Virus genome (UHGV): UHGV-0027971
Source of the DNA: a virus
Reading direction: 5' to 3' (one strand)
Length of the DNA stretch: 43,269 nucleotides
This document shows positions 7,347 through 43,111 of the stretch, in pieces (position 1 is the first letter of the stretch; each line of letters begins with the position of its first letter). The translations under genes were made by a program, and so were the position numbers. The notes beneath the pieces are model-generated. The model made no database searches and was not told the DNA's origin. It worked only from the letters and a program-made list of their open reading frames with translations.

Positions 7347-7401
7347 ATATTACCTTTCAGGTAATTTTCAAAACGTGCTGGATAGCAAATAAATTATTTG
7401 A

Positions 7402-7421
7402 TACTGTATAAATATACAGTT
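7402..7421 (+). promoter_or_regulatory. LexA (SOS) box TACTGTATAAATATACAGTT overlapping a promoter (-35 TTGATA at 7398..7403)
   Basis: Near-consensus CTGT-N8-ACAG with AT-rich spacer, 20 bp upstream of the 7441 start. Confidence 0.75.
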
Positions 7422-7440
7422 ATTGCATGGAGAAGATAAG

Positions 7441-7698
7441 ATGCAGCAGTATCACTATCCACTGGAAGAGGGATTTACCGAAAGGATTCACACGCCGGGA
7501 GGCGTCAGGTCACTGGTGGAGGGATCGCACTTGATGAAATTACTCCGGGATCTCGATAAGGATGGATTTAATGTCGATGGCCCACTTGCCGAACTGACTG
7601 CACTGATTAACTACGTCACCAGCTCACAGATGTCTATGCGGGATCTGCAAACACATCTCGACTATTGTGCCGAACAATTACGAAAACAAACCCGGTAA
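7441..7698 (+). CDS. SOS-regulated small protein, stand-alone homolog of the shared antirepressor C-terminal module (Tum-like role inferred)
   Basis: 85 aa from ATG 7441 (RBS GGAGAAG; track start 7423 is a forced TTG). Aligns with the C-termini of the proteins at 9345, 11074 and 41064 (IH.P.GV..L.E.S.LM.LL...DG..V.G..AELT...Y......RD.QTH..Y). Confidence 0.6.
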   Translation: MQQYHYPLEEGFTERIHTPGGVRSLVEGSHLMKLLRDLDKDGFNVDGPLAELTALINYVTSSQMSMRDLQTHLDYCAEQLRKQTR

Positions 7699-7705
7699 AT
7701 TTAAA

Positions 7706-7721
7706 GGCCGCAAGAGCGGCC
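7706..7721. terminator. hairpin terminator between convergent genes
   Basis: GGCCGC-aaga-GCGGCC followed by a T-rich tract; between the 7441..7698 (+) and 7721..8449 (-) 3' ends. Confidence 0.55.
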
Positions 7722-8449
7722 TATCGTTTCGCTTTGTGCTCATCCCAGCACGTTTTGCACCATGCCATTAAACCATCCGCATTTTGATTATTAGGGTAAA
7801 AGCTGGTTCGTTTTCTGCGGACATTACAAATTGGGCACCACTTCATATGGCGTGTATTCTTTGGGCCATCGAGACACCTTGCACACCACTTAGTCAATCC
7901 ATCTGGATTTTTTGACGATTTCCTGAATTTTTCATATGGAAGGTTTATTCTGCATCGCAAGCACTGCTTGCTACCACTTGAAACTCTGTTAGCTGATTCT
8001 TCTTTTGGCGGCGATACAGAAGGTATTCTTGCTGGCTCTGATACTGCCTGAGGTGCTTTTTTAGATGACTGAGACGATGTGTCATCACCAGGGAATCTTC
8101 CATGATATGCCGGACGCGTTGACACTCCAGGTGGAAGCTCTGCTGTAAATGGCTTTGGCTGAATCAGTTGCCTCTCTTTTGCTAACTCCTGCTGTTTATA
8201 ATATGTCTGGATTACCGCACTATCATAAGCAGGAGGTGCGGAAATATTAGGCGCATTACCTCCAGTTTTTTGAAACTGAGTAGAGGTGTGTTCTATCACC
8301 TGTGTACGATTAATCGTTATCTCCCCATCTTCGGTCTTTATCGTTTTGTTATGATTTACGACCGTACGATCAGAGATCTTAGTCTTGTTCTGGTTGATAA
8401 CGTAAATAATCACCGCAACCACACCAACAACTATCCAGAAAACTTCCAT
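7721..8449 (-). CDS. hypothetical membrane-anchored protein with two C-terminal zinc-ribbon-like motifs
   Basis: 242 aa; N-terminal hydrophobic helix, low-complexity S/P-rich linker, then CLRC..(x20)..WCARC and CPIC..(x20)..WCKTC. Confidence 0.5.
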   Translation of the reverse strand: MEVFWIVVGVVAVIIYVINQNKTKISDRTVVNHNKTIKTEDGEITINRTQVIEHTSTQFQKTGGNAPNISAPPAYDSAVIQTYYKQQELAKERQLIQPKPFTAELPPGVSTRPAYHGRFPGDDTSSQSSKKAPQAVSEPARIPSVSPPKEESANRVSSGSKQCLRCRINLPYEKFRKSSKNPDGLTKWCARCLDGPKNTRHMKWCPICNVRRKRTSFYPNNQNADGLMAWCKTCWDEHKAKR

Positions 8450-8604
8450 TGCTTTTCCTCACAATAACATTACCTTAAAGGTAATATCTTGCTTTCAGGT
8501 GATCAAGCATTAAACTCCATCAACCAAATACGGTTGATTTTGATATTTATTCTCGCTTATCATTACCTTTGCGGTAAATTTACATCGCACTCCTCTTGTG
8601 CCAT

Positions 8605-8690
8605 AGTAATCAGGCACTGGCAAAATCCAGTGCCGGGATTGGCGTCCCGGATTACTAGTAGGCGCATACCACGCCAGACGTGGTTTTTTT
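8605..8690 (+). ncRNA. candidate structured small RNA or leader element ending in a rho-independent terminator
   Basis: Outer stem TAGTAATC/GATTACTA enclosing hairpins GGCACTGG-caaaat-CCAGTGCC and CCGGGA-ttggcg-TCCCGG, then terminator CCACG-ccaga-CGTGG + T7 (8669..8690). Function unknown. Confidence 0.3.
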
Positions 8691-8845
8691 ATGCGTATAG
8701 CACAGTCATATCCGAATTATGGTGGGCTGGGCAGGGGCACCGAAAGGTGCGCCGGTACCTACTAGGCCGGTACGCCAACCTTGTCCAGTTCACCACCAGC
8801 AATTGGCGTTGCGGTGGTAGGTAACTTACTAGTAGAGGTATCGCT

Positions 8846-9352
8846 ATGCCAGGCCAAAAAATCTCAAACGACGATCTGTATTGGTTAATTTCTAATTCTC
8901 CACTCCTTCTTATGCTAAGGCAAGAAAGTGCACCACTGGTCAGTGAATTGATTAGCTGTAGAAATAGAATGTGGGATGAAGGGGCAGATTTAGATACCAA
9001 TTTGTTTGATCATCTTATGCAACTAGCAGTCGATAACAAGGCAAAACTACGCTCTGAATACAACGCTTATCCAGAAATAGCAAAATACCTTAACGCTGAA
9101 ATACTTGGTGGACCAGGTCAACCAGACCTAAAAACAAAAGATGGTTACCCTGTTGAGGTGAAGGTAGATACTTTTTCTCCTTCAGCATTAAAACAATTAT
9201 TAAGGTATATGGATGCTTCTGGCGCAGATTTTGGTTTTGCTTGTGCAAAAACTCTTTCTGTAAAACTCCCTGAAAACATAAAGTTCATCCAGTTAGATTA
9301 TAAAGATAATTGCTATTTCGTCGTGAAAGATGGAGGCAATGAAAATGCGTAA
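8846..9352 (+). CDS. hypothetical protein (168 aa), possible PD-(D/E)xK-like motif
   Basis: ORF with RBS GAGG; sequence KDGYPVEVKVD resembles a D..E.K nuclease core but this is a weak by-eye guess; AT-rich. Confidence 0.5.
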   Translation: MPGQKISNDDLYWLISNSPLLLMLRQESAPLVSELISCRNRMWDEGADLDTNLFDHLMQLAVDNKAKLRSEYNAYPEIAKYLNAEILGGPGQPDLKTKDGYPVEVKVDTFSPSALKQLLRYMDASGADFGFACAKTLSVKLPENIKFIQLDYKDNCYFVVKDGGNENA

Positions 9353-10064
9353 TATAGCTATTGATAAGTTGCCGATAACAACTCATTGCAACATCCCTGT
9401 AATGACTACAGAAATGCTTGCTGATTTGTATGACACAGAACCCAAACTGATTCGTCAAAACTATCAACGAAATGCAGATCGATTCATTGAGGGAAAACAT
9501 TGTTTCAAGCTGATAGGCGAAGAATTACGAGCATTTAAGAACGAGTCCTCTCAAAGAGGTTTGCTTAATATTGCACCAAAAGTAAGTCATCTTTTCTTAT
9601 GGACCGCTCGCGGTGCAGCACGACATGCGAAAATTCTTGAGACTGAAAAAGCGTGGGAGGTCTTCGAAAAACTGGAAGATTGCTACTTCGACAGAAAACC
9701 CGCAAATGTCAGTGGAGATGTTCGTCTCTCAGGTGGAGCTGATTTATCAAAGGCCACTCAGGTAATTGAAAAATTCATGCCCGCCATTATGGAGGCGATC
9801 AAGCTGGAAGACAAAAAAGAATACAGCGCCCCACTGAAGCCCGGCTACCGCAGCCTGATTCACTCGCCGTCGGGTGTTCTCGGCCTGACGGAGCACTCAC
9901 TGCTGATGAATCTGCTGAATCAGTTGCAGGAAGACGGGCACGACGTATCGGGCGCGGCGGCGGAACTGACCACCATGTTCTGCTACATCGTCGGTGTGAG
10001 TAAATGCCTGCGTGATATCCAGACGCACGCGGAGTACATCAACGACAAGGCAGGGTTCTTCTGA
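9345..10064 (+). CDS. antirepressor-like protein (ORF6N-type N-terminal domain + shared C-terminal module)
   Basis: Start taken at ATG 9345, 8 nt after GGAGG (track start 9330); C-terminal ~95 aa near-identical to those of 11074..12012 and 41064..41720. Confidence 0.7.
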   Translation: MRNIAIDKLPITTHCNIPVMTTEMLADLYDTEPKLIRQNYQRNADRFIEGKHCFKLIGEELRAFKNESSQRGLLNIAPKVSHLFLWTARGAARHAKILETEKAWEVFEKLEDCYFDRKPANVSGDVRLSGGADLSKATQVIEKFMPAIMEAIKLEDKKEYSAPLKPGYRSLIHSPSGVLGLTEHSLLMNLLNQLQEDGHDVSGAAAELTTMFCYIVGVSKCLRDIQTHAEYINDKAGFF

Positions 10065-10184
10065 CAGAACGGCGGCACAGGGATGTGCAAAACGGAACTA
10101 TCGTGACATGTCACAGGCCGCTTTCGCGGCCTTGTTTTTAACGAATGCCACCGCCGCCTGGGCGGGAATCCGCAGACACAAAAA

Positions 10185-10201
10185 AGCCCGCGGCGCGGGC
10201 T
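10185..10201 (-). terminator. rho-independent terminator downstream of the 10209..10844 gene
   Basis: Hairpin AGCCCGC-ggc-GCGGGCT with A-run 10177..10185 on plus (U-run on minus); sequence resembles the terminator at 2660..2692. Confidence 0.5.
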
Positions 10202-10208
10202 TAAAGAA

Positions 10209-10844
10209 CTATTTTATTGGCAGCTTATGCTTTGAAATTATGGCCAATCTGTTTTGGAAGTTTTCCGCATCACCCCACAACCAGGTTTCACCTTTCTCAA
10301 GTTCTTCCTCGTTATTCATCTCTATAAGTTCGCATGTCATCATGTCGTAACCATAGAGATGGAGGCCAAGTTCCAGTGCGTCATACATGCGAGCCTGCCA
10401 GAACGACATGCCTTCATGAGTCTGGTTGCGATCAGACACGATGATATCGTACCGTTCCAAGAGGTAGTTCATGAAGATGATGCCAGCGAAATCATGAAGC
10501 ACAGCACGATGCTTAGGCTTCTGGGTTCTCCATACCAATATCTGCGTGACAGGACGGCAGTTAAGATAGCTGTCAGGCTGGATAATGACACGATTGTAAT
10601 ACACTACCTCTTCGGTGAGGTCATTTATCAATGACAGTTCAAAGTGCGCCTGTGGAATCTCGCCTTTCTTACGATCGTCTACACGGACAACGCGGTATCC
10701 AGGAGCCAGAGAAACGCCTTTGACATCAGATGTGACATCGTTGCCGTTCACTAACTCTGAATACAGAGCGCGGTTGTCTGGAGTTTCGTTCAGATGAGCG
10801 AAAACCTCAGTTACCTTTGCCGGATTCAGCAGTTGTTGTGGCAT
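10209..10844 (-). CDS. hypothetical protein (211 aa), accessory gene
   Basis: Clean ORF with its own terminator and two upstream TTACC-N5-GGTAA-type sites (10886..10900, 10986..11000); no family recognised. Confidence 0.5.
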   Translation of the reverse strand: MPQQLLNPAKVTEVFAHLNETPDNRALYSELVNGNDVTSDVKGVSLAPGYRVVRVDDRKKGEIPQAHFELSLINDLTEEVVYYNRVIIQPDSYLNCRPVTQILVWRTQKPKHRAVLHDFAGIIFMNYLLERYDIIVSDRNQTHEGMSFWQARMYDALELGLHLYGYDMMTCELIEMNNEEELEKGETWLWGDAENFQNRLAIISKHKLPIK

Positions 10845-11073
10845 ACATCACCTCATAATATATAGATGCTTCTTTAAGCGGGATTTACCATTAGGGTAAA
10901 TGAACTATCCGAATGTTAAACGCCTTCGTACTCGTCAAATTTTCTCATGTGGGCTCCTCCTGTATCGGTGCCTAATCGCTATGGATCACCCGTGAGGTAA
11001 TAGTACGCTATTCACCCCCAGTCTGCAATCTGTACAGAATTATTTAAAGGCACATCCCTGTGCCGCCGTTCTG

Positions 11074-12012
11074 TCAGAAGAATCCTGCCTTGTCGTTGAT
11101 GTACTCCGCGTGGGTCTGGATATCACGCAGGCATTTGCTCACACCAACGATGTAGCAGAACATGGTGGTCAGCTCCGCCGCCGCGCCCGATACATCGTGC
11201 CCGTCTTCCTGCAACTGGTTCAGCAAATTCATCAGCAGTGAGTTCTCCGTCAGGCCGAGAACACCAGACGGCGAGTGAATCAGGCTGCGGTAGCCGGGCT
11301 TCAGCGGATAACCATAACATTTTGTCTGTGTTTTAATTGCCTCACGAAGCGCATCTAACATCTTGACTGCCACTTCATCATTCTCTGATGCAGATCCAGC
11401 AGGGAGATACTCCCCTTCAAGCGGAACCCGAGCAACAAGAGACAACGCTTCGGCGAATTGATCTTCATCAATTTCTTTGTACGAACAGCCAAAATGAGAT
11501 TTCAGTGACGACCACATGGTGATCATCGCCTTAGCCTGTTTTTCTTTTGGCAGAGACTGACCGCGACTCATGACGAGTTGTTTAATGGCTTCCTGCTGTT
11601 CAGTGGTGATTTTACCCGGCAACGCCTTTTTAGCTTTGCGTGGGTTAACTACATGGCCTTTAGTCCAGTAATCGTAGAGCACATCGTCACACTCTTCCTG
11701 ATACTGGATTACCTTGTCGCGGATTTCAGGGCGTACTTTGTTTGGACTGATGCTGTTCAACCAAGCTGCCAATTTTCGTAAAGCCATACAAATCATGGCT
11801 TGCACCCCACCGGCAGAAGGTATGGTGATTTCCACCATACCCTTCGAGAAGCGTTGAGAAATCTTCTTATGTTGAGATTTCCAGTCTAGCCCCATTCCCT
11901 CAACGATAGGTTTCATTGGGGTATACGGTTCACCGTTGTGATTGACAACATAAAGCTCTGCGCCGTGGAATGGCACGTTGATAGTAGATACCGCTGTTGC
12001 TATACTCGTCAT
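11074..12012 (-). CDS. ant: antirepressor (AntA-type N-terminal domain + shared C-terminal module)
   Basis: 312 aa; N-terminal region resembles AntA/P22 Ant-type domains; directly downstream of the arc-like gene as in P22 immI. Confidence 0.8.
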   Translation of the reverse strand: MTSIATAVSTINVPFHGAELYVVNHNGEPYTPMKPIVEGMGLDWKSQHKKISQRFSKGMVEITIPSAGGVQAMICMALRKLAAWLNSISPNKVRPEIRDKVIQYQEECDDVLYDYWTKGHVVNPRKAKKALPGKITTEQQEAIKQLVMSRGQSLPKEKQAKAMITMWSSLKSHFGCSYKEIDEDQFAEALSLVARVPLEGEYLPAGSASENDEVAVKMLDALREAIKTQTKCYGYPLKPGYRSLIHSPSGVLGLTENSLLMNLLNQLQEDGHDVSGAAAELTTMFCYIVGVSKCLRDIQTHAEYINDKAGFF

Positions 12013-12087
12013 GTCGTTAATTCCTATACGTAGTTTTACGATACTGAAGCCCTGACGGTCTGGCCACCGTTGGGCTTCGCTGTTTTA
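12013..12087 (+). ncRNA. candidate sar-like antisense RNA opposite the ant ribosome-binding region
   Basis: Plus-strand promoter inside the ant 5' end (-35 TTGATA 11978..11983, 17-bp spacer, -10 TATACT 12001..12006) and plus-strand terminator in the arc-ant gap (GAAGCCC..ACGGT-ctggcc-ACCGT..GGGCTTC + GCTGTTTTA, 12046..12087); predicted ~75 nt. Confidence 0.45.
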
Positions 12088-12252
12088 TGCCACGCTATTC
12101 TTCTCACCAGTGAGTCCATACACTTTCCTCAGCTGATAGATAATCTCTGTATTGAACTTTCGGCATTCTTTTTCGCCATTTCTTTCAATAGCTAACTTCA
12201 CATCGTCCGGAAAACGAACTCGTCGTTGACACATCTCTTTTGCTTTTTGCAT
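12085..12252 (-). CDS. arc: Arc-like ribbon-helix-helix repressor
   Basis: 55 aa from ATG 12252 with strong RBS AAGGAG (track start 12288 is a forced TTG); size and beta-strand region (RRVRFPDDVKLAIERNGE) fit P22 Arc. Confidence 0.7.
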   Translation of the reverse strand: MQKAKEMCQRRVRFPDDVKLAIERNGEKECRKFNTEIIYQLRKVYGLTGEKNSVA

Positions 12253-12266
12253 TTCATATCTCCTTA

Positions 12267-12281
12267 GCCCCACGGTGGGGC
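12267..12281. promoter_or_regulatory. Mnt-operator-like palindrome GCCCCACGGTGGGGC upstream of the arc-like gene
   Basis: Perfect 15-bp palindrome with CCACGGTGG core as I recall for the P22 mnt operator; sits just upstream of the arc RBS. Confidence 0.6.
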
Positions 12282-12372
12282 AAAACAATTGTCACACCGT
12301 GCGTCATTGATGTCAAGCACACGGTGAGGCATACTTCAATCATTGCAAGTAACTCAATATTTGGTGAAGAAC

Positions 12373-19767: not shown

Positions 19768-20231
19768 TATTTTCTCTCCATGTGAAATCTGTGGAAATTA
19801 AGACCAAGAGCACCATAAGGCGCGGCTTCTTCAAGCCTGAATCCAAGCCAGTGCAGCCATGCTTTGGCAACATGGTTTCGCTCGTCGACGTAGTTTTCCA
19901 GGCGCGGATAAACTGCCAGCATCTGCTGCAATACAGGGCGGCAGTGGCGAAGAAATGTCTTCTGATATTTTTCAATACGGCTGGTTCCTACCAGCCAGGG
20001 CGTACCATTGCCACCGATCATTGACGCCGGAGATACACCAAACATGGTTACCAGTTCTCCGTTCGCAAATCCTGACCAGGCCATAGTCGCAGTACGCAGA
20101 CCAACACGCAGCGCATCTTCGGTAGTCATCAGTGATACCGCATACAGTTCGTCAATATCAGCCTGACGAACATCCGGCAAAATCATCTGAAGATGCTCTT
20201 CGGTTGCGGGAATAATTTGAACATCGATCAT
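19767..20231 (-). CDS. virion protein (T7 gp13-position)
   Basis: 154 aa ORF between the tail tubular B-like and gp14-like genes; synteny only. Confidence 0.5.
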   Translation of the reverse strand: MIDVQIIPATEEHLQMILPDVRQADIDELYAVSLMTTEDALRVGLRTATMAWSGFANGELVTMFGVSPASMIGGNGTPWLVGTSRIEKYQKTFLRHCRPVLQQMLAVYPRLENYVDERNHVAKAWLHWLGFRLEEAAPYGALGLNFHRFHMERK

Positions 20232-28408: not shown

Positions 28409-28835
28409 ATCAATGACTCCGTACGCAATTAAATTATTACCAATTTAACCACATATGTTTTATTTATCGTAGGCAGTTGACATTTAACGCACGAATTATT
28501 ACCTTTAAGGTAACCAAAGAGCTCATTCCGGTTACTAACCTGACTGGCTTGTCGTTAAATTGAACAGGTGGAGTGAGCTTTTATTTTGAGCAGTACGGCG
28601 TATGGCACATGCGCCGATAGCGGTCTGGATACGTTTAAGGGGCACCCTCCCTTGCTCGGGCAAACGAACCAGGTAGCCGGAATGTGCAAGTCGAGCGGTT
28701 TTATTCCGCGCACGGGGATTCACCATCCCGGCGATTCGGTGTGACGCCTCGGAAGAGACGAGGGTACAACGATGAGAGCATTTATGGAGCCGCGACAAAG
28801 TGTGGCGCCTTAACAGGCTAAGTGCTCTCAGCGTT

Positions 28836-28912
28836 GTGGCATTAGCTCAGTTGGACAGAGCAACCGCCTTCTAAGCGGTTGGTCGCAGGTTCGAATCCTG
28901 CATGCCACGCCA
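28836..28912 (+). tRNA. tRNA-Arg (anticodon UCU)
   Basis: Cloverleaf by eye: acceptor GTGGCAT/ATGCCAC, D-arm TAGCTCAGTTGGACAGAGCA, anticodon stem ACCGC/GCGGT with loop CTTCTAA, T-arm GCAGGTTCGAATCCTGC, discriminator G and CCA. Confidence 0.85.
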
Positions 28913-29111
28913 GAATCACGCCTAAGGACCGTGATGCCAGAAGTTCCAGGTGCTTGGCGGTGATGGTTTCCCTTGAAGGACTATCACCGCCCTTTTTACA
29001 GCAGGACGCCATTGCGATGACTTCATGCTGTAAACCAGTACAGCCACGGAAGGCATAACTCATTGCTTCCAGTTCGCCCGGTTCGCCGGGCATTTTTTTA
29101 AGGTAAAAATC

Positions 29112-31007: not shown

Positions 31008-31600
31008 TGATTGCCATCCTGACGTTCTTTCAGTCTCTTCCTGGCTGCCGCTATGCGATCAGCAATTGTCACATTCACATTAACATCCAGGCGTTCTTTG
31101 AATGCGTTGACGTCGACGTGCTTACCAATCAGTTCGAGGTTCTTCACCTTGTCAGGCCATTTAATTTTTTTGAGGATTGTCTCTATCGAATCCTCGTTCA
31201 TGTTCATGATGGTCGATGACAGATCAAAGCCACTAAGCGTAGTGCGCCAGATTTTCGGCCACTCGCGGATTGGCTTAAGGCTCCCATCGTCGTTGAGGAT
31301 GTCGATCACGTCCATCTGGTCGATCTCCACCAGGCGCATGAGAACGTAATCAGCACTGACGCGCATTCGTTTGTTGCGCTCCTCCATCAACTCAGCAATC
31401 CGTTTTTGAATGCGTTCATCGCGCATCATGACACTGGCTTTAACTGCCGCTGTATTTGGGGAGAATCCTGCGTTAATCGCTGCCTGAGTCTGGTTTTCAG
31501 GCGTTTTGATGTATGACTGGCAATAAGCCTCCTGCATTGCTGTGAGCGGCTTAAATTGCGTTGATTTGCGTTTATAGGTTTTAGGTTCAGCAGGCATCAT
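31004..31600 (-). CDS. terminase small subunit (start uncertain)
   Basis: Motif LTAMQEAYCQSYIK..NQTQAAINAGFSP typical of small terminase N-terminal HTH; the track ORF extends to 31678 with a forced TTG start, internal ATG at 31600 preferred. Confidence 0.55.
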   Translation of the reverse strand: MMPAEPKTYKRKSTQFKPLTAMQEAYCQSYIKTPENQTQAAINAGFSPNTAAVKASVMMRDERIQKRIAELMEERNKRMRVSADYVLMRLVEIDQMDVIDILNDDGSLKPIREWPKIWRTTLSGFDLSSTIMNMNEDSIETILKKIKWPDKVKNLELIGKHVDVNAFKERLDVNVNVTIADRIAAARKRLKERQDGNQ

Positions 31601-31674
31601 AACCACCGTGGTAATAGTTACCGTTGTGGTAATAGTACCATGCAAAATAAAGCCGCCATAGTTGGCGGCAGTAT

Positions 31675-31908
31675 TCAAAGTCCATCAAATTCATCGTAAA
31701 AACTCTCGTCAAGATACCCTTCCCATTTACCGCGAATGAAAATTACATCCTCGCCGCAAGAGTGCTGACTGTCGATAACTATATCCCTCCTGGCGCAACC
31801 ATACTTATGCATGAGAAATTTAACCTCTTTCGGAAAATTTGCTGAGTTATCTCTCATATCTTCAAGGTCGTAGCGTATTTTTGGCATAACACCTTCGTGA
31901 CATGTCAC
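31675..31908 (-). CDS. hypothetical small protein
   Basis: 77-aa ORF upstream of the terminase genes. Confidence 0.4.
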   Translation of the reverse strand: MTCHEGVMPKIRYDLEDMRDNSANFPKEVKFLMHKYGCARRDIVIDSQHSCGEDVIFIRGKWEGYLDESFYDEFDGL

Positions 31909-32252
31909 ACTATTAATTTCGTTTCATGCCAGCCTTTGGTCACCCAGCATTGCGAGTCACCATTACACGGGCATGAATTCACAGGAACTCTCTCGCCGCA
32001 CTTACCGCAACGTTTTCTGCTGATCGATTTTATACGCCCGCGCACACGTGCATCATCCTGGCGGATCAGCAGCGCGATGTACTCGGCCATTTCATAGGGA
32101 TCGCGACCAGGGCGCCGGGCGGCGCAGTTCCGCGCTAGCATTTCCTGCTCCTGCTTATCCAGCACCAGTTCAATTTTGCGCTCACCGGCGGCGGACTGCC
32201 GCGCGCGCTGCGCGGCTTTGCGTTCTGCGGGGGATTTAGCCACGAATCGCAC
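31905..32252 (-). CDS. hypothetical protein with Cys-rich C-terminus
   Basis: 115 aa; CGKCGERVPVNSCPCNGDSQC cluster. Confidence 0.4.
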   Translation of the reverse strand: MRFVAKSPAERKAAQRARQSAAGERKIELVLDKQEQEMLARNCAARRPGRDPYEMAEYIALLIRQDDARVRGRIKSISRKRCGKCGERVPVNSCPCNGDSQCWVTKGWHETKLIV

Positions 32253-33791: not shown

Positions 33792-33908
33792 GATTTACCC
33801 CTTAGGTAATTAAAAACCACATAAGACATGAAATCAATAGATGCTAGAACATTTTATTACCCATCAGGTAATCATGTGGACGTAAAAAAATGCGCTATCG
33901 CGCTGGTA

Positions 33909-35686: not shown

Positions 35687-35787
35687 TTTTTCCGCCCCTT
35701 TTTGTTATTGATATTGGCTATTTTGCACAATTGGAAAATTTGATCAACCAGATTTGGTTTTTTATTACCTTTGAGGTACGAATAGAT

Positions 35788-35834: not shown

Positions 35835-36065
35835 TCATGAGTAGAAGAAGTATGCCAGTTCTGCTTTTGAGCGCAGCCATTGTCTTGTTTTACAGGCTTT
35901 AAAAAGCCCATTCATCAATACCTTACCTGGCATTTTGCGCTTACCTGTTAAGTGAGTCTGGATATAGTGACTCGTCGTTCCGGCTTCCTGTGCGAAGGCT
36001 TCACGCTCATCCGGAGTAAGTGCAAGCCAGTGCTTTTTGAAATCGAAATGTCCGTTATCGCTCAT
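35835..36065 (-). CDS. Cro-like small regulator (first gene of the minus-strand early operon)
   Basis: 76 aa, divergent from the repressor gene and followed by the replication genes; assignment by position and size. Confidence 0.5.
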   Translation of the reverse strand: MSDNGHFDFKKHWLALTPDEREAFAQEAGTTSHYIQTHLTGKRKMPGKVLMNGLFKACKTRQWLRSKAELAYFFYS

Positions 36066-36101: not shown

Positions 36102-36164
36102 TCACCCATAAGGTAACAAAAATCAAGGATAGTTACCTATGAGGTGCATTTACCTGATGGGTAA
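36102..36164. promoter_or_regulatory. operator cluster of the immunity switch (three TTACC-N5-GGTAA-type sites)
   Basis: TCACCCATAAGGTAA (36102..36116), TTACCTATGAGGTGC (36133..36147), TTACCTGATGGGTAA (36150..36164) in the 154-bp gap between divergent regulator genes. Confidence 0.65.
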
Positions 36165-36219: not shown

Positions 36220-36804
36220 ATGAAAAGTATCCAGGACGTCCGCAGGCAAAATCTCAACGACTTGATCGACCGTGAATTCAATGGTGTTCAGACGCGGATG
36301 GCAGAAAAACTTGGAACTCAGGCAAATCTGGTAAACCGCTGGGCTCTTGGCAAGAAGGTTATCGGCGACCAGGTTGCGCGAAAAATTGAAGCTGCCGCCA
36401 ATAAACCCCGTAACTGGCTTGATATCGATCGCTCGCTTTCTCAGGAAGGTTTTCAGCCTGTCGGCCCAAGCGACATTGGCCAGCTGGCGGCTCACAACCT
36501 GGAACGCTGGATGAGCGAAAGCCGCGACCTTTCAACACAGGGAAAACTTCACCGCGCATCCGGCGTAGCCCAGGTGACAATCAGCCGCCTGTTAAACAAT
36601 GAGGTCAGCGTTTCCATTTCCACCCTGGAGAATGTTGCATCCGCATTCGGGCGTCACGGCTATGAATTACTGATTCACCCGCACGACCCTGCGACCATCA
36701 ACTATGATCGCTCGCGCTACGCATTGTTACCCGAAACCGAGAAAGCAAAGATCGAAAGTTACATTGAATTTGTCATCAACCAGAACGAAAAAAGCAAACA
36801 ATAA
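36220..36804 (+). CDS. putative prophage repressor with two HTH domains and no recognisable autocleavage domain
   Basis: 194 aa; HTH-like segments VQTRMAEKLGTQANLVNRWALGKK and ASGVAQVTISRLLNNE; no LexA/CI-like peptidase motif seen; occupies the cI position. Confidence 0.6.
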   Translation: MKSIQDVRRQNLNDLIDREFNGVQTRMAEKLGTQANLVNRWALGKKVIGDQVARKIEAAANKPRNWLDIDRSLSQEGFQPVGPSDIGQLAAHNLERWMSESRDLSTQGKLHRASGVAQVTISRLLNNEVSVSISTLENVASAFGRHGYELLIHPHDPATINYDRSRYALLPETEKAKIESYIEFVINQNEKSKQ

Positions 36805-36825
36805 AACTATAGTTTTCAGCAAGTA

Positions 36826-36848
36826 AGCCGCCTCATGGCGGCTTTTTT
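36826..36848 (+). terminator. rho-independent terminator after the repressor gene
   Basis: AGCCGCC-tcat-GGCGGCT followed by TTTTTT. Confidence 0.75.
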
Positions 36849-36861: not shown

Positions 36862-36938
36862 TTACCTTACGGGTAATTTTTTTAACTCATATCTATTGAC
36901 ACCAAACCAAATAAGCATAATTATTACCTCAACGGTAA
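36862..36938 (+). promoter_or_regulatory. pL-like promoter flanked by two operator sites
   Basis: -35 TTGACA (36895..36900), AT-rich -10 region near 36917..36923; TTACCTTACGGGTAA (36862..36876) upstream and TTACCTCAACGGTAA (36924..36938) just downstream. Confidence 0.55.
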
Positions 36939-37110: not shown

Positions 37111-37112
37111 TA

Positions 37113-38230: not shown

Positions 38231-39144
38231 GCAACGAAATTGCAATCACCAATGATGTGTTGGCTATTCGGGGAATCGATGAAGTTACATGGAGCGCTCT
38301 GAAAAACAGTATTTACCCTGGGGCAAAAGATGAATCGGTAATGATGGCAGTCGATTACTGCCGGGCGCGTCAACTCGATCCTCTTCTTAAGCCGGTACAC
38401 CTGGTACCAATGAGTGTTAAAGACTCGAAGAGTGGAAAGAATGAATGGCGCGACGTGGTCATGCCTGGCATTGGACTTTATCGCATTCAGGCCTACCGTT
38501 CCGGCGATTACGCAGGCGCTAATGAACCTGAGTTCGGTCCAGATGTAACACAAACGCTTTCAGGCGTGGAGGTTACCTTCCCTCAGTGGTGTAAGTACAC
38601 CGTCAGCAAGCGAATGGCAAGCGGGGAAATCGTAGAGTTTAGCGCCAAAGAATACTGGATTGAGAACTATGCAACTGGGGGGCGTGACACATCGGCACCA
38701 AATGCCATGTGGAAAAAGCGCCCTTATGCGCAGTTGGCAAAATGCGCAGAGGCACAGGCATTACGTAAAGCATGGCCGGAGATTGGTCAACAAGCCACAG
38801 CTGAGGAAATGGAAGGTAAATATATCGACTCACCTGACATTATTGAACGTGACGTAACTCCAAGAAGCCAGGCAAAGCACGGCACAGCATCCAGCATGAA
38901 CAGTCTGATCAACGCTAAAACAGTGAAAAAGCCTGATGAGCAAACGCGTAAAGCGGATAGCCGTGATCCAGAAGAAATGCTGATGGCCTTTACCAGCGCA
39001 GCGATGAATTACAGCACTGTCTCCGAACTGGATAAGGCTTACAAATACATTGCACAAAAACTTTCAGATGATGACGAACTGCTGGCAAAAGCCACCGACG
39101 TTTACAGCGTTCGTCGGGAAGAATTAAACGAAACATCTATGTAA
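38227..39144 (+). CDS. RecT/Bet-family single-strand annealing protein
   Basis: Motif KRPYAQLAKCAEAQALRKAWPE; start ATG 38227 overlaps the exonuclease stop (ATGA). Confidence 0.8.
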   Translation: MSNEIAITNDVLAIRGIDEVTWSALKNSIYPGAKDESVMMAVDYCRARQLDPLLKPVHLVPMSVKDSKSGKNEWRDVVMPGIGLYRIQAYRSGDYAGANEPEFGPDVTQTLSGVEVTFPQWCKYTVSKRMASGEIVEFSAKEYWIENYATGGRDTSAPNAMWKKRPYAQLAKCAEAQALRKAWPEIGQQATAEEMEGKYIDSPDIIERDVTPRSQAKHGTASSMNSLINAKTVKKPDEQTRKADSRDPEEMLMAFTSAAMNYSTVSELDKAYKYIAQKLSDDDELLAKATDVYSVRREELNETSM

Positions 39145-39193
39145 CCACCACCGCGGCGCCACACGCGCCGCACTGCAACCAAGAGAGGTATTT

Positions 39194-39442
39194 ATGAAAG
39201 GTGCATTAGGTAAGAAGGAACTCCTGGCGGTGGTGCCACTGTCATGGAGCACTATCGACCGTATGGAGCGCGCAGGGGAATTTCCTAAACGCTGGTATAT
39301 CACCGATAAACGCTGCGCATGGAACCGTGATGAAGTTGAGCGTTGGCTTGATGAACGTCAGGCAGCAAGCCCGGCAGAGTTCCAGGGTAAAAAGCCTCCT
39401 GTTCAGCAACGTGTATATCGTCCTGTGAGCAACGCTGCATGA
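39194..39442 (+). CDS. AlpA-family small HTH regulator/excisionase-like protein
   Basis: 82 aa; LAVVPLSWSTIDRMERAGEFPKRWYITDKRCAWNRDEVERWLDE resembles AlpA/Xis-type HTH proteins. Confidence 0.6.
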   Translation: MKGALGKKELLAVVPLSWSTIDRMERAGEFPKRWYITDKRCAWNRDEVERWLDERQAASPAEFQGKKPPVQQRVYRPVSNAA

Positions 39443-39551
39443 GTGCGCTGCTAAGGCACTGGAGCAAATGGTCAGGATGGTACTTATTCCTGGCCTCTGT
39501 TTCAGCATGGCTTTATCTGCTGGCATTAATTTTCAGAGAGGGTTGGATTAA

Positions 39552-39851
39552 GTGAGAAAGTTAAGCCGACTTGAAAAATACCACATGAATAAGGTTTCAA
39601 TGCGCAGTCCGTCAAAGATTGTCGCCGTTACTCCTGCGGCGATAGAGATCGAAAAACGCGCGATTGAAAGAGAGAAAAAAGGGCAGTTCCGCATTGCCGC
39701 TCACCTTTGGCTTCAGTGTATGGATGTTGCTTCTGGTGATGTTGAACGTGCAAGGATCGCGGTTCGCAGGGACCAATGTATCACAAAAGGTAACGGCCTT
39801 CGCCGTGGCGACTATAGCGGCATAGGATGTTGTGGGGTGGTTTATGACTAA
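39552..39851 (+). CDS. hypothetical protein (possibly PerC-like activator; weak)
   Basis: 99-aa ORF (GTG start) upstream of and overlapping the methyltransferase start. Confidence 0.4.
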   Translation: MRKLSRLEKYHMNKVSMRSPSKIVAVTPAAIEIEKRAIEREKKGQFRIAAHLWLQCMDVASGDVERARIAVRRDQCITKGNGLRRGDYSGIGCCGVVYD

Positions 39852-40494
39852 GAAATACACACTAATCTATGCAGATCCACCCTGGGTATACCGGGACAAA
39901 GCCGCAGATGGTAATCGCGGTGCCGGTTTTAAATATCCAGTTATGAGTGTGCTGGATATCTGCCGCCTTCCTGTGTGGGATTTGACCGCTGAAAACTGTC
40001 TGTTGGCCATGTGGTGGGTGCCAACACAACCACTCGAAGCACTAAAAGTTGTTGAAGCCTGGGGATTTCGTCTGATGACGATGAAGGGCTTCACGTGGAT
40101 AAAATGTGGTAGTCGACAACCAGATAAACTGGTTATGGGTATGGGGCACATGACTCGCGCCAATAGTGAAGATTGCCTGTTTGCGGTAAAGGGAAAACTA
40201 CCTACGCGCATTAATGCAGGGATCGTTCAGTCATTTACCGCACCGCGGCTTGAGCATTCAAGAAAACCAGATATCGTTCGTGAAAAACTTGTGCAATTGT
40301 TAGGCGATGTTTCTCGCATTGAACTGTTCGCCAGACAGACGTCTCATGGCTTCGATGTTTGGGGTAATCAGTGCGAAGACCCGGCAGTGCAACTACACCC
40401 TGGATACGCGTTGGATATTGCCGGATTAACAAATGCATTCAGCAATGCTCCGCTGTCACCAACAGACAACCAGGGGCGGGAGCGTGCAGCATGA
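39844..40494 (+). CDS. MT-A70-family N6-adenine DNA methyltransferase (orphan)
   Basis: Motif IYADPPW near the N-terminus; no adjacent restriction endonuclease gene; start ATG 39844 overlaps the previous stop. Confidence 0.8.
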   Translation: MTKKYTLIYADPPWVYRDKAADGNRGAGFKYPVMSVLDICRLPVWDLTAENCLLAMWWVPTQPLEALKVVEAWGFRLMTMKGFTWIKCGSRQPDKLVMGMGHMTRANSEDCLFAVKGKLPTRINAGIVQSFTAPRLEHSRKPDIVREKLVQLLGDVSRIELFARQTSHGFDVWGNQCEDPAVQLHPGYALDIAGLTNAFSNAPLSPTDNQGRERAA

Positions 40495-40739
40495 AGCAGA
40501 TTATGGTTGCACACAACGGCGTCAGGTTTGAAGTCGTCATGGTTTTGACTAAGTACCGCAATGATGAGGTATTGCAGAGAAAAGAAACTGTAACTTACCG
40601 TTATAAACACCGAAGTTCAGCTGTTAGAAGATTACGGAAGATTACGGAAGAGCTAAAAAATGATCCTCATCGTGTTATTGAGGTAAAAGGCAACCCATAT
40701 AAAATCACAACTTCAGTGGAGCTAAGACATATGCAATAA
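40491..40739 (+). CDS. hypothetical small protein
   Basis: 82 aa from ATG overlapping the methyltransferase stop; contains a 10-bp tandem duplication at 40631..40650. Confidence 0.45.
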   Translation: MKQIMVAHNGVRFEVVMVLTKYRNDEVLQRKETVTYRYKHRSSAVRRLRKITEELKNDPHRVIEVKGNPYKITTSVELRHMQ

Positions 40740-41011
40740 AATCACGCCTGACGAATCGCGATTATCTCGCTATTGGTATTGCAGAGATTGCTGGACTCAG
40801 TGGCGCATGATTTGACAATGCCGCCAGAGCTATCGCATACTGACCGCACTAGAACTTCAAAGCGGTCACCCGCACCCGATAGCTTTGCGGCTTTTTTATG
40901 CCTGCAATTTGGCATAGTCACATCCGTACAAAGGTCGGGTGGAGAGGCGTAATACAATACCCAAAAGGGGAATATGCCCGGAGCGTCTTTGAAGGCTCTA
41001 GTTGACACCCG

Positions 41012-41034
41012 ATCACCAGCTACTAACTGGTGAT
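41012..41034. promoter_or_regulatory. palindrome ATCACCAG-N7-CTGGTGAT next to -35-like TTGACA upstream of the third antirepressor gene
   Basis: 8-bp inverted half-sites; differs from both the LexA box and the TTACC-N5-GGTAA motif. Confidence 0.4.
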
Positions 41035-41063
41035 TGCTAACTAAAACTTCAAAGGAGGTCATC

Positions 41064-41720
41064 ATGACCAGTCAACTCATCCCCGTATTCAACGGCACTA
41101 TATCTAACGAAACAGCCCTACTTTGCAATGCCCGCGATCTGCACGCTTTTTTAGGTGTTAAAAAGGTGTTTGCAGCATGGATTACAAATCGAATTTCAGA
41201 ATACGAATTCATTGAAAATCAAGACTATATTTTGCTTTCCAATTTGGGAAAGCAAACATCTGGTAGAGGCGGCCACAACCGCAAAGAGTACCACCTCACC
41301 CTCGATACAGCCAAAGAACTAGCAATGGTCGAGCGTAACGAAAAAGGTCGTCAGGTACGACGCTACTTCATTGAATGCGAGAAACGTTTAAGACAACAAG
41401 AAACAAAAGTGGAGAAGGTCTTGTCAGGCTTCATGCCCGCCATTATGGAGGCGATCAAGCTGGAAGACAAAAAAGAATACAGCGCCCCACTGAAGCCCGG
41501 CTACCGCAGTCTGATTCATTCTCCGTCTGGTGTTCTCGGCCTGACGGAGAACTCACTGCTGATGAATCTGCTGAACCAGTTACAGGAAGACGGGCACGAC
41601 GTATCGGGCGCGGCGGCGGAGCTGACCACCATGTTCTGCTACATCGTCGGTGTGAGCAAATGCCTGCGTGATATCCAGACGCACGCGGAGTACATCAACG
41701 ACAAGGCAGGGTTCTTCTGA
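41064..41720 (+). CDS. antirepressor-like protein (Bro-N/AntA-like N-terminal domain + shared C-terminal module)
   Basis: Start ATG 41064 after strong SD AAGGAGG (track start 41034); C-terminal ~95 aa near-identical to those of 9345..10064 and 11074..12012. Confidence 0.75.
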
Positions 41721-41751
41721 CGGCGGCGGCACAGGGATGTGCCGGGCAAAA

Positions 41752-43002
41752 TTATTCCCCCGCCATCCACTTCTCAAACTTCGACGGGGAGAACGGAATC
41801 AGATCCGTATGCTCCCCGTTAATCCAGGAATCAATCATATCGGACCACTGCTGCAACATGTAGGCGCGCTGTCTGGCGTATTCCGCTTTGTTATATACGG
41901 CGCGCACACCTTTCTGCTCATGTGCCAGAGCCTTTTCAATCCAGTCTGAAGGATAACCAGCCTCATGCAACAACGTACTGGCTGTACGGCGCATATCGTG
42001 TACGGTGAAGTCCTGAATATGCTCACCATCTTCATTTATTATTTTCACCGTTCTGTCGATCAGAGAGTTCAGCGCGGCATTAGATAATGGCTTCCGGAAA
42101 TTGTAACGACCAGGAACCAGATATTCACTTCCACCAGCGCACATCTGCAACCCGACCAATATATCCTGTGCCTGTTTAGGCAGGTAAATAACGTGCGCCC
42201 GGCTTCCCTTCATACGGTCTGAAGGAATTGTCCATGTCCATTTTTTAAAATCTATTTCATCCCACGTTGCATTGGTGAATTCGCCTTTACGAACCATAGT
42301 GATAAGCACCAGCTTTAAAGCCATTTTCATAGTGCCCATAGCGCCAATGGCATCCAACGTGCGGAAGAACAGGCCAATTTCTTCTGGTGTCAGTGTTCGC
42401 TCTCGTGGTTTAAATATGGCGATAGACGAAGGTTTAATGTCAGCCGCAGGATTAAACAAACCATGACCACGGTCATTGGCGTGACGGTATACGCTGCTGA
42501 TGATCTCCCGGGCCTGCACTGCTGTTGCCCGGCCACCGCGTTCGACAATCCGGTCACACAAATCACGAACCATCGATGTGGTAATTTCAGCCATCATTTT
42601 GTTGCCAAGAACCGGAAGTATGTCACGGTCGATCACCGCCTGCTTCATTGCGCGGGTACTTTCAGCCAGGATGACGTGTTTCATATAACTGTCGGTATGT
42701 ACCGCAAATGTCTCGGCACCACGAATCTTTTTGATACCGTCACGTTTAGCCGCAGCCGGCGACTGGCCTGCTTTAAGCAGCTTCTTTGCAGCAATCAGTT
42801 CTTCCCGCGCTTCTGCCAGGCTGATACCGTCACGCCCATACTGCCCGATTACCAGTGTTTCGCGGCGACCGTTGATACGGTAGTCATAGCGAAACGAGAC
42901 CGTGCCTGACGTAAGCACAGCTACATACAGCCCGTCACGATCGGAGACCTTGTACAGTTTGTCCTGCGGCTTGAGGTTTTTTAATTTTGTATCGGTAAGC
43001 AC
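41752..43002 (-). CDS. int: tyrosine recombinase / integrase, P4-type (prophage)
   Basis: 416 aa; C-terminal HDMRRTASTLLHEAGY..WIEKALAHEQKGVRAVYNKAEY; adjacent to the right att copy. Confidence 0.9.
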   Translation of the reverse strand: MLTDTKLKNLKPQDKLYKVSDRDGLYVAVLTSGTVSFRYDYRINGRRETLVIGQYGRDGISLAEAREELIAAKKLLKAGQSPAAAKRDGIKKIRGAETFAVHTDSYMKHVILAESTRAMKQAVIDRDILPVLGNKMMAEITTSMVRDLCDRIVERGGRATAVQAREIISSVYRHANDRGHGLFNPAADIKPSSIAIFKPRERTLTPEEIGLFFRTLDAIGAMGTMKMALKLVLITMVRKGEFTNATWDEIDFKKWTWTIPSDRMKGSRAHVIYLPKQAQDILVGLQMCAGGSEYLVPGRYNFRKPLSNAALNSLIDRTVKIINEDGEHIQDFTVHDMRRTASTLLHEAGYPSDWIEKALAHEQKGVRAVYNKAEYARQRAYMLQQWSDMIDSWINGEHTDLIPFSPSKFEKWMAGE

Positions 43003-43111
43003 AATTCACCCGTATAGAAACCATTTTCATGACGGTATGAGAGTATACCTTTAAGGTAATACCGTCACCTGTACCGACGAAAAATATGGTGTAGAGTGAA
43101 TAGAAATGAAT

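Follow-up and report, generated by a model that had tools for sequence, protein, structure and literature searches.

A dispersed TTACC-N5-GGTAA palindrome as the putative Rep operator of a Uetakevirus prophage

The 43,269-nucleotide stretch of viral DNA analysed here in full (UHGV-0027971; hereafter the window) carries many copies of a 15-bp palindrome, TTACC-N5-GGTAA, raising the question of whether the repeat exceeds chance and which factor would read it. An earlier note had proposed a recurrent intergenic regulatory site, and the counts bear this out: exact matches to TTACCNNNNNGGTAA number 11 against 0.01 expected from dinucleotide shuffles of the window, and allowing up to one mismatch gives 19 against 0.78 expected. 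An unbiased window scan covering every 5-mer palindrome at gaps of 0-11 placed TTACC with a gap of 5 first, at 11 copies; the unrelated runner-up had 3. A weight matrix trained on relatives only, i.e., with the window excluded, likewise recovered 15 window sites at its threshold of at least 12 bits, compared to 0.13 in shuffles. The proposed intergenic enrichment is borne out as well: non-coding DNA makes up 9.7% of the prophage, yet holds 10 of the 11 exact sites (binomial P = 8e-10) and 15/18 sites with up to one mismatch (P = 4e-13). The sole "coding" exact site, 31618, lies near the beginning of terS, for which the start at ATG 31597 is the one annotated in TL-2011b and ZX5 and gives the length of ε15 terS; with this start, 31618 and its neighbour 31600 are both intergenic.

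An ε15/phiV10-type (Uetakevirus) prophage inserted at guaA occupies 2739-43209, instead of the 7350-43058 given previously, and is delimited by two copies of an att core:

2739..2755, att core copy AATCATTCCCACTCAAT, left prophage boundary
43193..43209, att core copy AATCATTCCCACTCAAT, right prophage boundary, 3' end of guaA

The same core sequence has been reported for phiV10, ε15, and ZX5 (PMC9782041). As the copies at 2739 and 43193 bound the prophage, 2739-7350 (lysis cassette and tailspike) belongs to it, and the boundary of a separate "element 1" had been misplaced. A weak site assigned to that element at 408 does have the quoted sequence, but lies outside the prophage; both it and a match at 7068 within the tailspike gene are likely chance matches, given the shuffled expectation above.

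The complete operator is 17 bp long, A-TTACC-(N2-W-N2)-GGTAA-T (e.g., ATTACCTTTCAGGTAAT), with the 15-bp palindrome as its core. Variant sites are altered in one arm only (TCACC, GTACC, GGTGC, GGTAT) and carry no compensating change, which fits protein read-out of the sequence as opposed to a hairpin. Every sequence listed in the earlier note is present, although three coordinates were off by one (10886, 33856, and 43044 should read 10885, 33857, and 43045), the site at 36133 has two mismatches, and three sites had been missed, 31618 (exact) plus 31600 and 4876 (one mismatch each). The putative operators are as follows:

7350..7364, putative operator, exact; between divergent tailspike (start 7245, minus strand) and small Ant (start 7441, plus strand) genes; half-sites invariant in a six-phage alignment; ε15 orthologue 19895-19911, annotated repressor site
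8470..8484, putative operator, exact; upstream partner of 8563, 93 bp away (same pair and spacing in TL-2011b); 20 bp from orf242 start (minus strand)
8563..8577, putative operator, exact; midpoint at +1 of predicted TTGATT-18-TATCAT (8534-8563), the promoter of the isrK / C4 RNA / orf168 / antirepressor-like orf244 unit
10885..10899, putative operator, exact; 40 bp upstream of orf211 (10209-10844, minus strand)
10986..11000, putative operator, one mismatch (TCACC); centred at +1 of predicted promoter TTGCAG-17-TACTAT, minus strand
28499..28513, putative operator, exact; 90 bp upstream of the gp3-like/portal structural operon (minus strand); invariant in a seven-phage alignment; ε15 orthologue 2931-2947, annotated repressor site
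31600..31614, putative operator, one mismatch; abuts terS start codon; in tandem with 31618, 18 bp apart (pair present in 9/10 relatives examined)
31618..31632, putative operator, exact; upstream of terS, after terminator 31669-31652; centred at +1 of predicted extended -10 TGgTACTAT; ε15 orthologue 12-27, annotated repressor site
33795..33809, putative promoter-proximal operator, exact; centred at +1 of predicted TTGATT-17-TTTAAT, upstream of DUF1064 resolvase-like gene (minus strand); seven-phage alignment
33857..33871, putative distal operator, exact; 62 bp from 33795, directly after a conserved terminator; ε15 orthologue 35906-35922, annotated repressor site
35765..35779, putative operator, one mismatch (GTACC, gene strand; kept in phiV10, ZX5, and Tyrion); after cro-like terminator (35813-35794), before p42-like gene
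36102..36116, putative switch operator O1, one mismatch (TCACC); overlaps predicted cro-ward promoter TTGTTA-17-TATTAT (36119-36091, minus strand); nine-phage alignment
36133..36147, putative switch operator O2, two mismatches (GGTGC); at about -44 from predicted rep promoter start; weakest of the three
36150..36164, putative switch operator O3, exact; left half TTTACC is also the predicted -35 of the rep promoter
36862..36876, putative distal PL operator, exact; 62 bp upstream of 36924, directly after rep terminator (36825-36844)
36924..36938, putative proximal PL operator, exact; centred at +1 of predicted TTGACA-17-AATTAT (36896-36924); -35, -10, and operator, joined through TACC, invariant in eight phages
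43045..43059, probable weak operator, one mismatch (GGTAT, same form in ten relatives); 42 bp upstream of int start; nested between ACGGTAT / ATACCGT repeats, which resemble integrase arm sites

Ten relatives were compared: TL-2011b, phiV10, ε15, ZX5, SPC32H, Klebsiella phage BUCT711, Enterobacter phage Tyrion, and prophages from Serratia, E. coli, and a metagenome. TTACC-N5-GGTAA is the top palindrome in 10/10, and the gene junctions at which it occurs are shared throughout, with variable central bases and flanks; the genera represented are Escherichia, Salmonella, Klebsiella, Enterobacter, and Serratia. In the ε15 reference record, seven dispersed ATTACC-N5-GGTAAT sites are already entered as protein_bind features ("repressor / lysogeny"), and all seven have a positional counterpart in the window. 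The motif is therefore an ordinary member of a known system, with the following proteins and site as its likely regulatory components:

36220..36804, plus strand, rep, immunity repressor; N-terminal HTH DNA-binding, middle dimerisation, and C-terminal tetramerisation/Ant-binding domains (PDB 5D50_A, Pfam)
35835..36065, minus strand, Cro-like small HTH protein divergent from rep; phiV10 gp41 / ε15 gp39 homologue (100% identical to phiV10 p41); phrog_35, transcriptional repressor
7441..7698, plus strand, small antirepressor Ant of SPC32H type (PDB 5D50_E, E = 5.6e-47)
7404..7419, LexA box CTGTATAAATATACAG; overlaps predicted -10 (TACTGT) of the ant promoter; CTGT and ATACAG invariant in six phages

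The palindrome very probably is the operator core bound by the N-terminal HTH domains of Rep, with operators heading nearly every transcription unit. The earlier note had named this repressor as regulator, and homology together with the ε15 annotation makes it the best candidate. Rep aligns with its homologue SPC32H Rep along the full length (E = 3.5e-42, residues 1-190) and, as a homologue of the SPC32H/ε15 proteins, would recognise the 17-bp operator. The NLVNRW recognition helix shows little or no change among homologues with as little as 43% identity, in line with the invariant operator half-site. It is also 99.5% identical to the ZX5 repressor, overexpression of which abolished free phage and lowered holin and endolysin mRNA by >99.9%. 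The idea of a single dimeric regulator survives in part: control of many promoters by one regulator encoded in the phage is the best reading, but homologous SPC32H Rep is described as a tetramer that binds palindromic sites as such and has a looping-type tetramerisation domain (PMC9638917, PMC9986798).

Promoter positions are consensus predictions, and promoter-like matches overall are not enriched in the region; the geometry at particular sites is nonetheless conserved. At five predicted promoters, the last two letters of the -10 hexamer, AT, lead directly into TACC, so that the operator is centred on the start site, where bound Rep would exclude RNA polymerase. In two of the five cases, PL and the DUF1064 promoter, another operator lies upstream at a distance of exactly 62 bp; across 11 genomes this spacing occurs 18 times, at two loci. 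Since a Rep tetramer comprises two DNA-binding pairs, one tetramer could clamp both sites, about six helical turns apart, around either promoter. At the late promoters (portal, tailspike, and, in relatives, lysis), the operator lies 28-41 bp upstream of a conserved promoter-like block without overlapping it; simple occlusion thus fails to explain the repression we infer there. The lysis-cassette operator of the relatives is degenerate in the window.

The placements described earlier stand, and the resulting layout would comprise three operators in the rep/cro-like switch, pairs at PL and at the post-replication (DUF1064 nuclease-like) promoter, a tandem before terS, and four operators in the accessory (moron/antirepressor) region. 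The portal operon and int would each have a single operator upstream, and further single operators would lie in the gap from tailspike to ant and past the cro-like terminator. Induction would proceed from LexA to the small Ant, releasing Rep and de-repressing all units together.

A different main ligand, the Cro-like protein, would act as a lytic-phase repressor lowering early and accessory promoters, with Rep confined to the switch. This small HTH protein has a "transcriptional repressor" match, its HTH is as invariant across the genus as the motif and as that of Rep, and Cro and repressor share operators in lambda-type switches (PMC4488713); moreover, operator specificity does not vary in the sampled family, so repressor/operator covariation does not discriminate between the two proteins. 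Sites before terS, the portal operon, and the tailspike would, however, imply counter-productive shut-off of late genes by a lytic repressor. The ε15 record ascribes the sites to repressor and lysogeny, overexpression of the ZX5 repressor alone silences the lysis genes, and PY54 Cro binds only one genomic site (PMC4488713). We thus deem the Cro-like protein very unlikely as main binder, though possible as a second ligand of the same operators. For the int-proximal site at 43045 only, membership in an attP arm region bound by integrase, Xis, or IHF instead of Rep is unlikely, yet has several points in its favour: the flanking inverted repeats, a ATACCGTCACC motif also found near the other att end (~2826), integrase and IHF sites annotated in the corresponding ε15 region, and a GGTAT mismatch that is always present. 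Against this, the perfect ATTACC half, 5-bp spacer, and central W are kept in 10/10 relatives, and the position relative to the int start codon is where a promoter would be expected.

Neither a host factor nor nucleic acid structure accounts as well for the set as a whole. A conserved enterobacterial transcription factor or nucleoid protein, co-opted by these phages, could explain an identical motif across five host genera as well as the near-match at 408 beyond the prophage, but that near-match is within chance expectation, and the Rep recognition helix is invariant to the same degree as the motif. Three sites always lie between rep and the cro-like gene, with pairs around PL, i.e., the classic layout of a phage repressor. 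TTACC-N5-GGTAA is not known as the site of any E. coli regulator, which also counts against this exceedingly improbable reading. We give next to no credence to the palindromes being RNA or DNA hairpins (terminators, RNase III sites, or processing signals), even though every site can fold into a stem-loop of 5-9 base pairs, one was flagged in a terminator-like scan (36954-36921), and RNase III sites are annotated in some shared intergenic regions of ε15. Such stem-loops are weak (-3.5 to -6.9 kcal/mol); the stem sequence is invariant over 78 unique exact sites, with variants unpairing one arm; many sites lie upstream of predicted start sites and would hence be untranscribed; and genuine GC-rich terminators adjoin several sites as separate elements.

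With Rep binding as the preferred reading, the nearest known system is that of ε15 and SPC32H, with which the prophage shares the operator sequence at orthologous junctions, Rep and Ant orthologous to the crystallised SPC32H pair, a LexA box at the ant promoter, the three-operator switch, and the 62-bp pairs. It differs in that Rep is 43% identical to the Salmonella proteins, the switch is of E. coli type with weaker O1 and O2, PL lacks the third operator found in ε15, SPC32H, and the Klebsiella phage, four extra operators lie in cargo absent from ε15, and the lysis-upstream operator has been lost. Lambda OR/OL is similar in its 17-bp pseudo-palindromic operators, three of them between divergent repressor and cro-like genes, in operators overlapping predicted PR-like and rep promoters, and in a PL-like promoter under operator control. 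In contrast to the two operator loci of lambda, however, there are nine or more here, late and accessory units have operators of their own, and Rep has no S24 autocleavage domain detectable with Pfam, its SPC32H homologue being described as working as a tetramer (PMC9638917).

The L5 and N15 analogies suggested in the earlier note are less apt. L5 stoperators resemble these sites in being numerous, genome-wide, and located in short intergenic gaps, several just past terminators or between operons; they are, however, 13-14 bp long, without dyad symmetry, oriented with transcription, mostly off promoters, and block elongation (PMC6550527), whereas this prophage has palindromic sites, of which at least five to seven overlap predicted promoters. 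N15 CB, of an unrelated phage type, combines a three-operator OR of lambda type with additional operators at a remote promoter, but has only five sites at two loci (PMC4488713).

By analogy, P1 C1 would be the closer functional counterpart, as a single immunity repressor gating many separate promoters genome-wide and inactivated by a protein antagonist, as predicted here, instead of cleavage. One P1 C1 operator heads an operon of the C4 antisense RNA followed by an antirepressor, and operator 8563 is predicted to gate the comparable isrK / C4 / orf168 / orf244 unit. The 22 dispersed P1 operators are asymmetric 17-mers, ATTGCTCTAATAAATTT (PMC8546580), unlike the palindromes here, and Rep gave family matches of HTH type only, with no link to C1 found (Pfam, PDB 5D50 comparison). 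Induction would also differ, being expected here to run via LexA and Ant.

The 15-bp palindrome TTACC-N5-GGTAA, which an earlier note had picked out from the sequence alone, occurs far above chance: the window contains 11 exact copies of TTACCNNNNNGGTAA where dinucleotide-preserving shuffles predict 0.01, and 19 copies against 0.78 when up to one mismatch is allowed. In a blind enumeration of all 5-mer inverted repeats with gaps of 0-11, TTACC with a gap of 5 ranked first (11 copies), the ranks directly below held these sites again in shifted register, and the top unrelated palindrome reached 3 copies. The sites form perfect inverted repeats, and their weight matrix is symmetric. According to a gene map backed by homology, non-coding DNA makes up 9.7% of the prophage and holds 10 of the 11 exact sites (P = 8e-10) and 15 of the 18 sites with at most one mismatch (P = 4e-13), bearing out the intergenic enrichment that the note had proposed. 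Every sequence it quoted is present, but three coordinates were off by one (correctly 10885, 33857 and 43045), the site at 36133 carries two mismatches, and 31618 (exact), 31600 and 4876 had been overlooked. The copies at 408 (outside the prophage) and 7068 (within the tailspike gene) fit chance expectation.

The prophage bearing these sites is an ε15-like (Uetakevirus) element. Its switch region is ~97% identical at the nucleotide level to HEMP4, vB_EcoP_ZX5, TL-2011b, and phiV10, and gene-by-gene tblastn against TL-2011b and phiV10 recovered the full ε15-like gene set in reverse orientation, with Rz, endolysin, holin, and tailspike at 2866-7245. Copies of the att core AATCATTCCCACTCAAT at 2739 and 43193 set the prophage at 2739-43209; this core, at the 3' end of guaA, is the one reported for phiV10, ε15, and ZX5 (PMC9782041), with which the prophage has both synteny and att core in common. 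Such phiV10-type prophages are common in E. coli, the switch region being matched in 718 of 5,426 complete genomes. The separate "element 1" with its own motif copy, proposed earlier for the left end, can be ruled out, as 2739-7350 is the lysis/tailspike end of the same prophage and only 1-2738 belongs to a different integrative element. The latter adjoins the prophage at the same att core and encodes an integrase (1243-2433, minus strand) with 53% identity to that of the prophage, suggesting that the two may occupy the guaA site in tandem. The best matches to the remainder of the window lack bases 1-74, and somewhere within 1-2738 lies a sequence that E. coli genomes carry in multiple copies (median, 10 places each). 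Two RNA features elsewhere in the prophage were also recorded:

28836-28912, plus strand, tRNA-Arg (anticodon TCT)
40933-41022, plus strand, sRNA-Xcc1 match (Rfam, 63 bits)

The former overlaps 28842-29093 (minus strand), a hypothetical protein (p04/gp24) in the phiV10 and TL-2011b annotation, and the SPC32H annotation has a tRNA-Arg at the equivalent place; the latter lies in the accessory region separating the methyltransferase gene from int and overlaps orf107 (40742-41065, minus strand).

The earlier reading of the palindrome was right at its core, but the operator set is one already annotated for this known phage genus and represents no new kind of system. In the ε15 reference record, seven protein_bind features bear the label "repressor / lysogeny", every one with the sequence (A)TTACC-N5-GGTAAT:

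before terS
before gp3
in the gp19-tailspike gap
after the repressor gene (three sites)
before the RuvC-like gene (one site)

Each of these classes has a counterpart in the window, at the terS, gp3, tailspike/ant, PL (the promoter with sites 36862 and 36924), and DUF1064/RuvC junctions. Scanning ε15 itself returned 11 exact sites, and 15 at up to one mismatch, versus the seven annotated. The TTACC motif likewise heads the palindrome ranking in TL-2011b, phiV10, ZX5, SPC32H, Klebsiella BUCT711, and Enterobacter Tyrion, and in three additional prophages, their sources being Serratia, E. coli, and a metagenome. When five intergenic regions are aligned, the half-sites are invariant and the central bases and flanks drift, and the consensus among relatives is A-TTACC-NNWNN-GGTAA-T (78 unique exact sites), with A or T at the centre in 96%. 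Operator specificity is identical among the ten Uetakevirus relatives, from five host genera and with Rep (the putative immunity repressor) down to 43% identity. Operator features are absent from the published annotations of phiV10, TL-2011b, and ZX5, and full-text literature searches for the motif string gave no match.

Rep (36220-36804, plus strand; 194 aa) matches SPC32H Rep over its full length (PDB 5D50_A, E = 3.5e-42, residues 1-190) and is 43% identical to ε15 gp38. It is 99.5% identical to the ZX5 repressor, overexpression of which abolished free phage and lowered holin and endolysin mRNA by 99.97-99.99% in a study that did not map operators (PMC9782041). A Pfam search of Rep returned only HTH matches (residues 21-61 and 106-147) and no Peptidase_S24 domain. 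SPC32H Rep consists of an N-terminal DNA-binding part, a middle dimerisation part, and a C-terminal tetramerisation/Ant-binding part with a p53-like "looping" fold, and its structural mechanism of repression "has not been extensively characterized" (PMC9986798); Rep has been described as a tetramer on palindromic sites, its DNA-binding pairs coming from different dimers (PMC9638917). The window protein has this three-part, S24-free architecture of the ε15/SPC32H type.

As to what binds the palindromes, alignment of Rep with its ε15, SPC32H, Klebsiella, and Enterobacter counterparts shows the helix NLVNRW to be invariant in the five genus members and nearly so among 86 database homologues, which agrees with the unchanging half-site. 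For a covariation test, the 86 homologues were screened for altered recognition helices and three of their prophages were fetched; those with NLVSRW, NLISRW, and NVISRW keep TTACC-N5-GGTAA at the same places. Since the motif is unchanged alongside variant helices, and the HTH of the divergently encoded Cro-like protein (gp41-like; 35835-36065, minus strand) is as invariant as the Rep helix, covariation cannot tell the two proteins apart. Phage biology favours Rep at the dispersed putative operators because a lytic-phase repressor is not expected on late promoters, and the switch operators are probably common to both proteins. Binding by a host factor is unlikely, as the classic switch layout speaks against it. 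Nor are the palindromes, inverted repeats though they are, likely to act as hairpins or terminators, a role that we rejected given their weak stems (-3.5 to -6.9 kcal/mol) and variant sites that alter one arm with no compensation in the other.

Five predicted promoters are built alike, with a -10 hexamer that closes in AT and leads directly into TACC, so that the operator would be centred at about +1:

operator 36924, predicted promoter PL, TTGACA-17-AATTAT
operator 33795, predicted promoter TTGATT-17-TTTAAT
operator 8563, predicted promoter TTGATT-18-TATCAT
operator 10986, predicted promoter TTGCAG-17-TACTAT
operator 31618, predicted promoter TGgTACTAT

The -35, the -10, and both operators of PL are invariant in eight phages, and the DUF1064/RuvC promoter has a PL-like architecture in seven; at both, the second operator is centred at -61 or -62. 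In a set of 11 genomes, neighbouring sites are spaced 62 bp apart 18 times and 63 bp once, with further recurrent spacings of 18 bp at the terS pair and of 17 plus 30/31 or 48 bp at the switch. Besides the five +1-centred sites, others overlap the -35 or spacer of predicted promoters; 35765, 28499, and 7350 have no convincing overlapping promoter prediction. The switch sites O1-O3 (36102, 36133, and 36150), kept in nine phages, are arranged in a lambda-like manner: O1 overlaps the predicted cro-ward promoter TTGTTA-17-TATTAT, the weak O2 lies near -44, and the left half of O3, TTTACC, coincides with the -35 predicted for the rep promoter, so that rep would be autoregulated.

Sites 31618 and 31600 fall in the first codons of terS only with the TTG start (31678) of phiV10. 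In TL-2011b and ZX5, terS begins at the ATG equivalent to 31597, the length of ε15 terS agrees, and the longer frame contains a GC-rich terminator hairpin (31669-31652) in addition to enclosing the two operators. ATG 31597 is thus the more likely start, and with it every exact site is intergenic.

A different arrangement holds at the late promoters, where a conserved block recurs:

4724, 7310, 28447 (and 33815), minus strand, CATATRTGGTT then a TAAT/TATGAT -10-like element, upstream of the lysis, tailspike, and portal operons

The operator stands 28-41 bp upstream of this block at the promoters for portal and tailspike (and, among relatives, for lysis), so that occlusion does not account for repression at these places; an activator may be interfered with instead, or looping may be involved. 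The block is invariant across relatives and looks like the actual late promoter; in the window alone CATATRTGGTT is not significant (4 matches versus 1.8 expected), its support being solely cross-phage conservation. A phage activator, perhaps the gp49-like regulator (31905-32243), may use the block as a late-promoter element. The lysis-upstream operator kept by relatives (TCACC/TTACC-N5-GGTAA) is degenerate in the window (TTACCAAAGATGAAT, region 4661-4944). This region carries DNA specific to the window and lying downstream of a different tailspike allele, and 4876, considered as the lysis-cassette operator, was ruled out because alignment places it in that DNA; it is not orthologous to the relatives' operator. 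Also rejected was a general rule of a half-site 62 bp downstream of the operator: by manual counting it holds for gp3/portal, the tailspike distance is 50 bp, and lysis has none. The spacer of the predicted tailspike promoter contains a lone ATTACC half-site (7300-7305), invariant in six phages. Repeats that resemble integrase arm sites surround site 43045, whose mismatch, GGTAT, is the same in ten of ten relatives; the site may thus be weak or serve two purposes.

Induction would proceed through antirepression. The product of ant, the small antirepressor gene (7441-7698, plus strand), is an orthologue of SPC32H Ant (5D50_E, E = 5.6e-47), and a perfect LexA box, CTGTATAAATATACAG, at 7404 overlaps the predicted -10 (TACTGT) of its promoter, the arms CTGT and ATACAG being invariant in six phages. 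A small Ant whose gene adjoins that of the tailspike and has a promoter bearing a LexA box is again the ε15/SPC32H arrangement; in SPC32H, ant is reportedly under LexA control and Rep non-cleavable, as Kim and Ryu are said to have found in 2013. A second, weaker LexA-like box, CTGTGAATTCGAACAG, at 7331-7346 adjoins operator 7350. Further features concern two other antirepressor modules:

8614-8690, plus strand, isrK Hfq-binding RNA (Rfam, 68 bits)
8715-8800, plus strand, C4 antisense RNA (Rfam, 77 bits)
8846-9352, orf168
9330-10064, antirepressor-like gene (phrog_1760)
11074-12012, minus strand, P22_AR_N Ant
12014-12081, plus strand, sar antisense RNA (Rfam, 45 bits)
12085-12252, minus strand, Arc-like gene
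12316-12288, strong promoter TTGACA-17-GACAAT of the P22-type immI module

The isrK and C4 RNAs stand in tandem downstream of a predicted Rep-gated promoter (8534-8563) and upstream of orf168 and the antirepressor-like gene. The P22-type immI module occupies 11074-12316, and the Rep operator is absent at its promoter (12316-12288). The prophage holds three antirepressor modules, i.e., LexA-Ant, P22-type Arc/sar/Ant, and the isrK/C4/AnrP-like unit at operator 8563.

A possible, though rather doubtful, model would combine these elements: (i) Rep as a promoter clamp, one tetramer bridging the 62-bp pairs at PL and DUF1064 and enclosing the RNA polymerase site in a micro-loop; (ii) operator specificity frozen genus-wide (at least 5 host genera, Rep down to 43% identity), resulting in cross-immunity; and (iii) three antirepressor modules on one operator code. 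Were specificity indeed frozen, cross-immunity among these phages would operate at the DNA level, leaving the Rep C-terminal domain and antirepressors as the only routes by which immunity diversifies.

Ultimately, transfer of the ε15 operator model affords a complete predicted Rep regulon for the prophage (17 sites at ~ten loci), together with two annotation corrections, namely the likelier terS start and the prophage span. The full phiV10-type site list, the -10/TACC fusion rule, the conserved 62-bp pairs, and the genus-wide constant specificity may be new, in a modest way; the fusion and the pairs provide simple testable rules for genome silencing by SPC32H-type Rep tetramers, for which structure is characterised and mechanism under-described.

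Among known systems, the prophage agrees with the ε15/SPC32H Rep-operator-Ant-LexA type in every testable feature, including ATTACC-N5-GGTAAT at those junctions where the ε15 annotation has repressor-binding sites, with Rep as the presumptive ligand. The layout of the isrK / C4 / orf168 / antirepressor-like unit resembles the isrK-orf45-anrP unit of Gifsy-1 and may be likened to the c4-icd-ant operon of P1 immI. Outside the ε15/SPC32H system, P1 C1 would be the closest functional analogue, with many dispersed operators each gating its own promoter (22 in P1, 17 putative sites at ~ten loci here). However, the P1 operators are an asymmetric 17-bp ATTGCTCTAATAAATTT (PMC8546580) bound by a C1-family repressor, whereas the window operator is a palindrome of different sequence, and no link of Rep to C1 was found, only HTH-type family matches with SPC32H Rep as the solved relative. 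The earlier comparison with L5 stoperators fits poorly: these are 13-14 bp, asymmetric, without dyad symmetry, oriented with transcription, mostly off promoters, and block elongation (PMC6550527), thus differing in symmetry and orientation, and probably in mechanism, from the palindromic sites described here. N15 is likewise a poor fit, its CB operators being at two loci only (PMC4488713). Lambda likewise has a trio of related operators that lie between its divergently transcribed repressor and cro genes and overlap the promoters of both (predicted ones in the window); however, its operators are confined to OR and OL and its repressor undergoes RecA-stimulated S24 autocleavage, whereas the prophage has sites at at least nine loci and a Rep without S24. 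Finally, operator sequence varies between immunity groups in lambdoid and cluster A phages, whereas it is constant among the Uetakevirus relatives.
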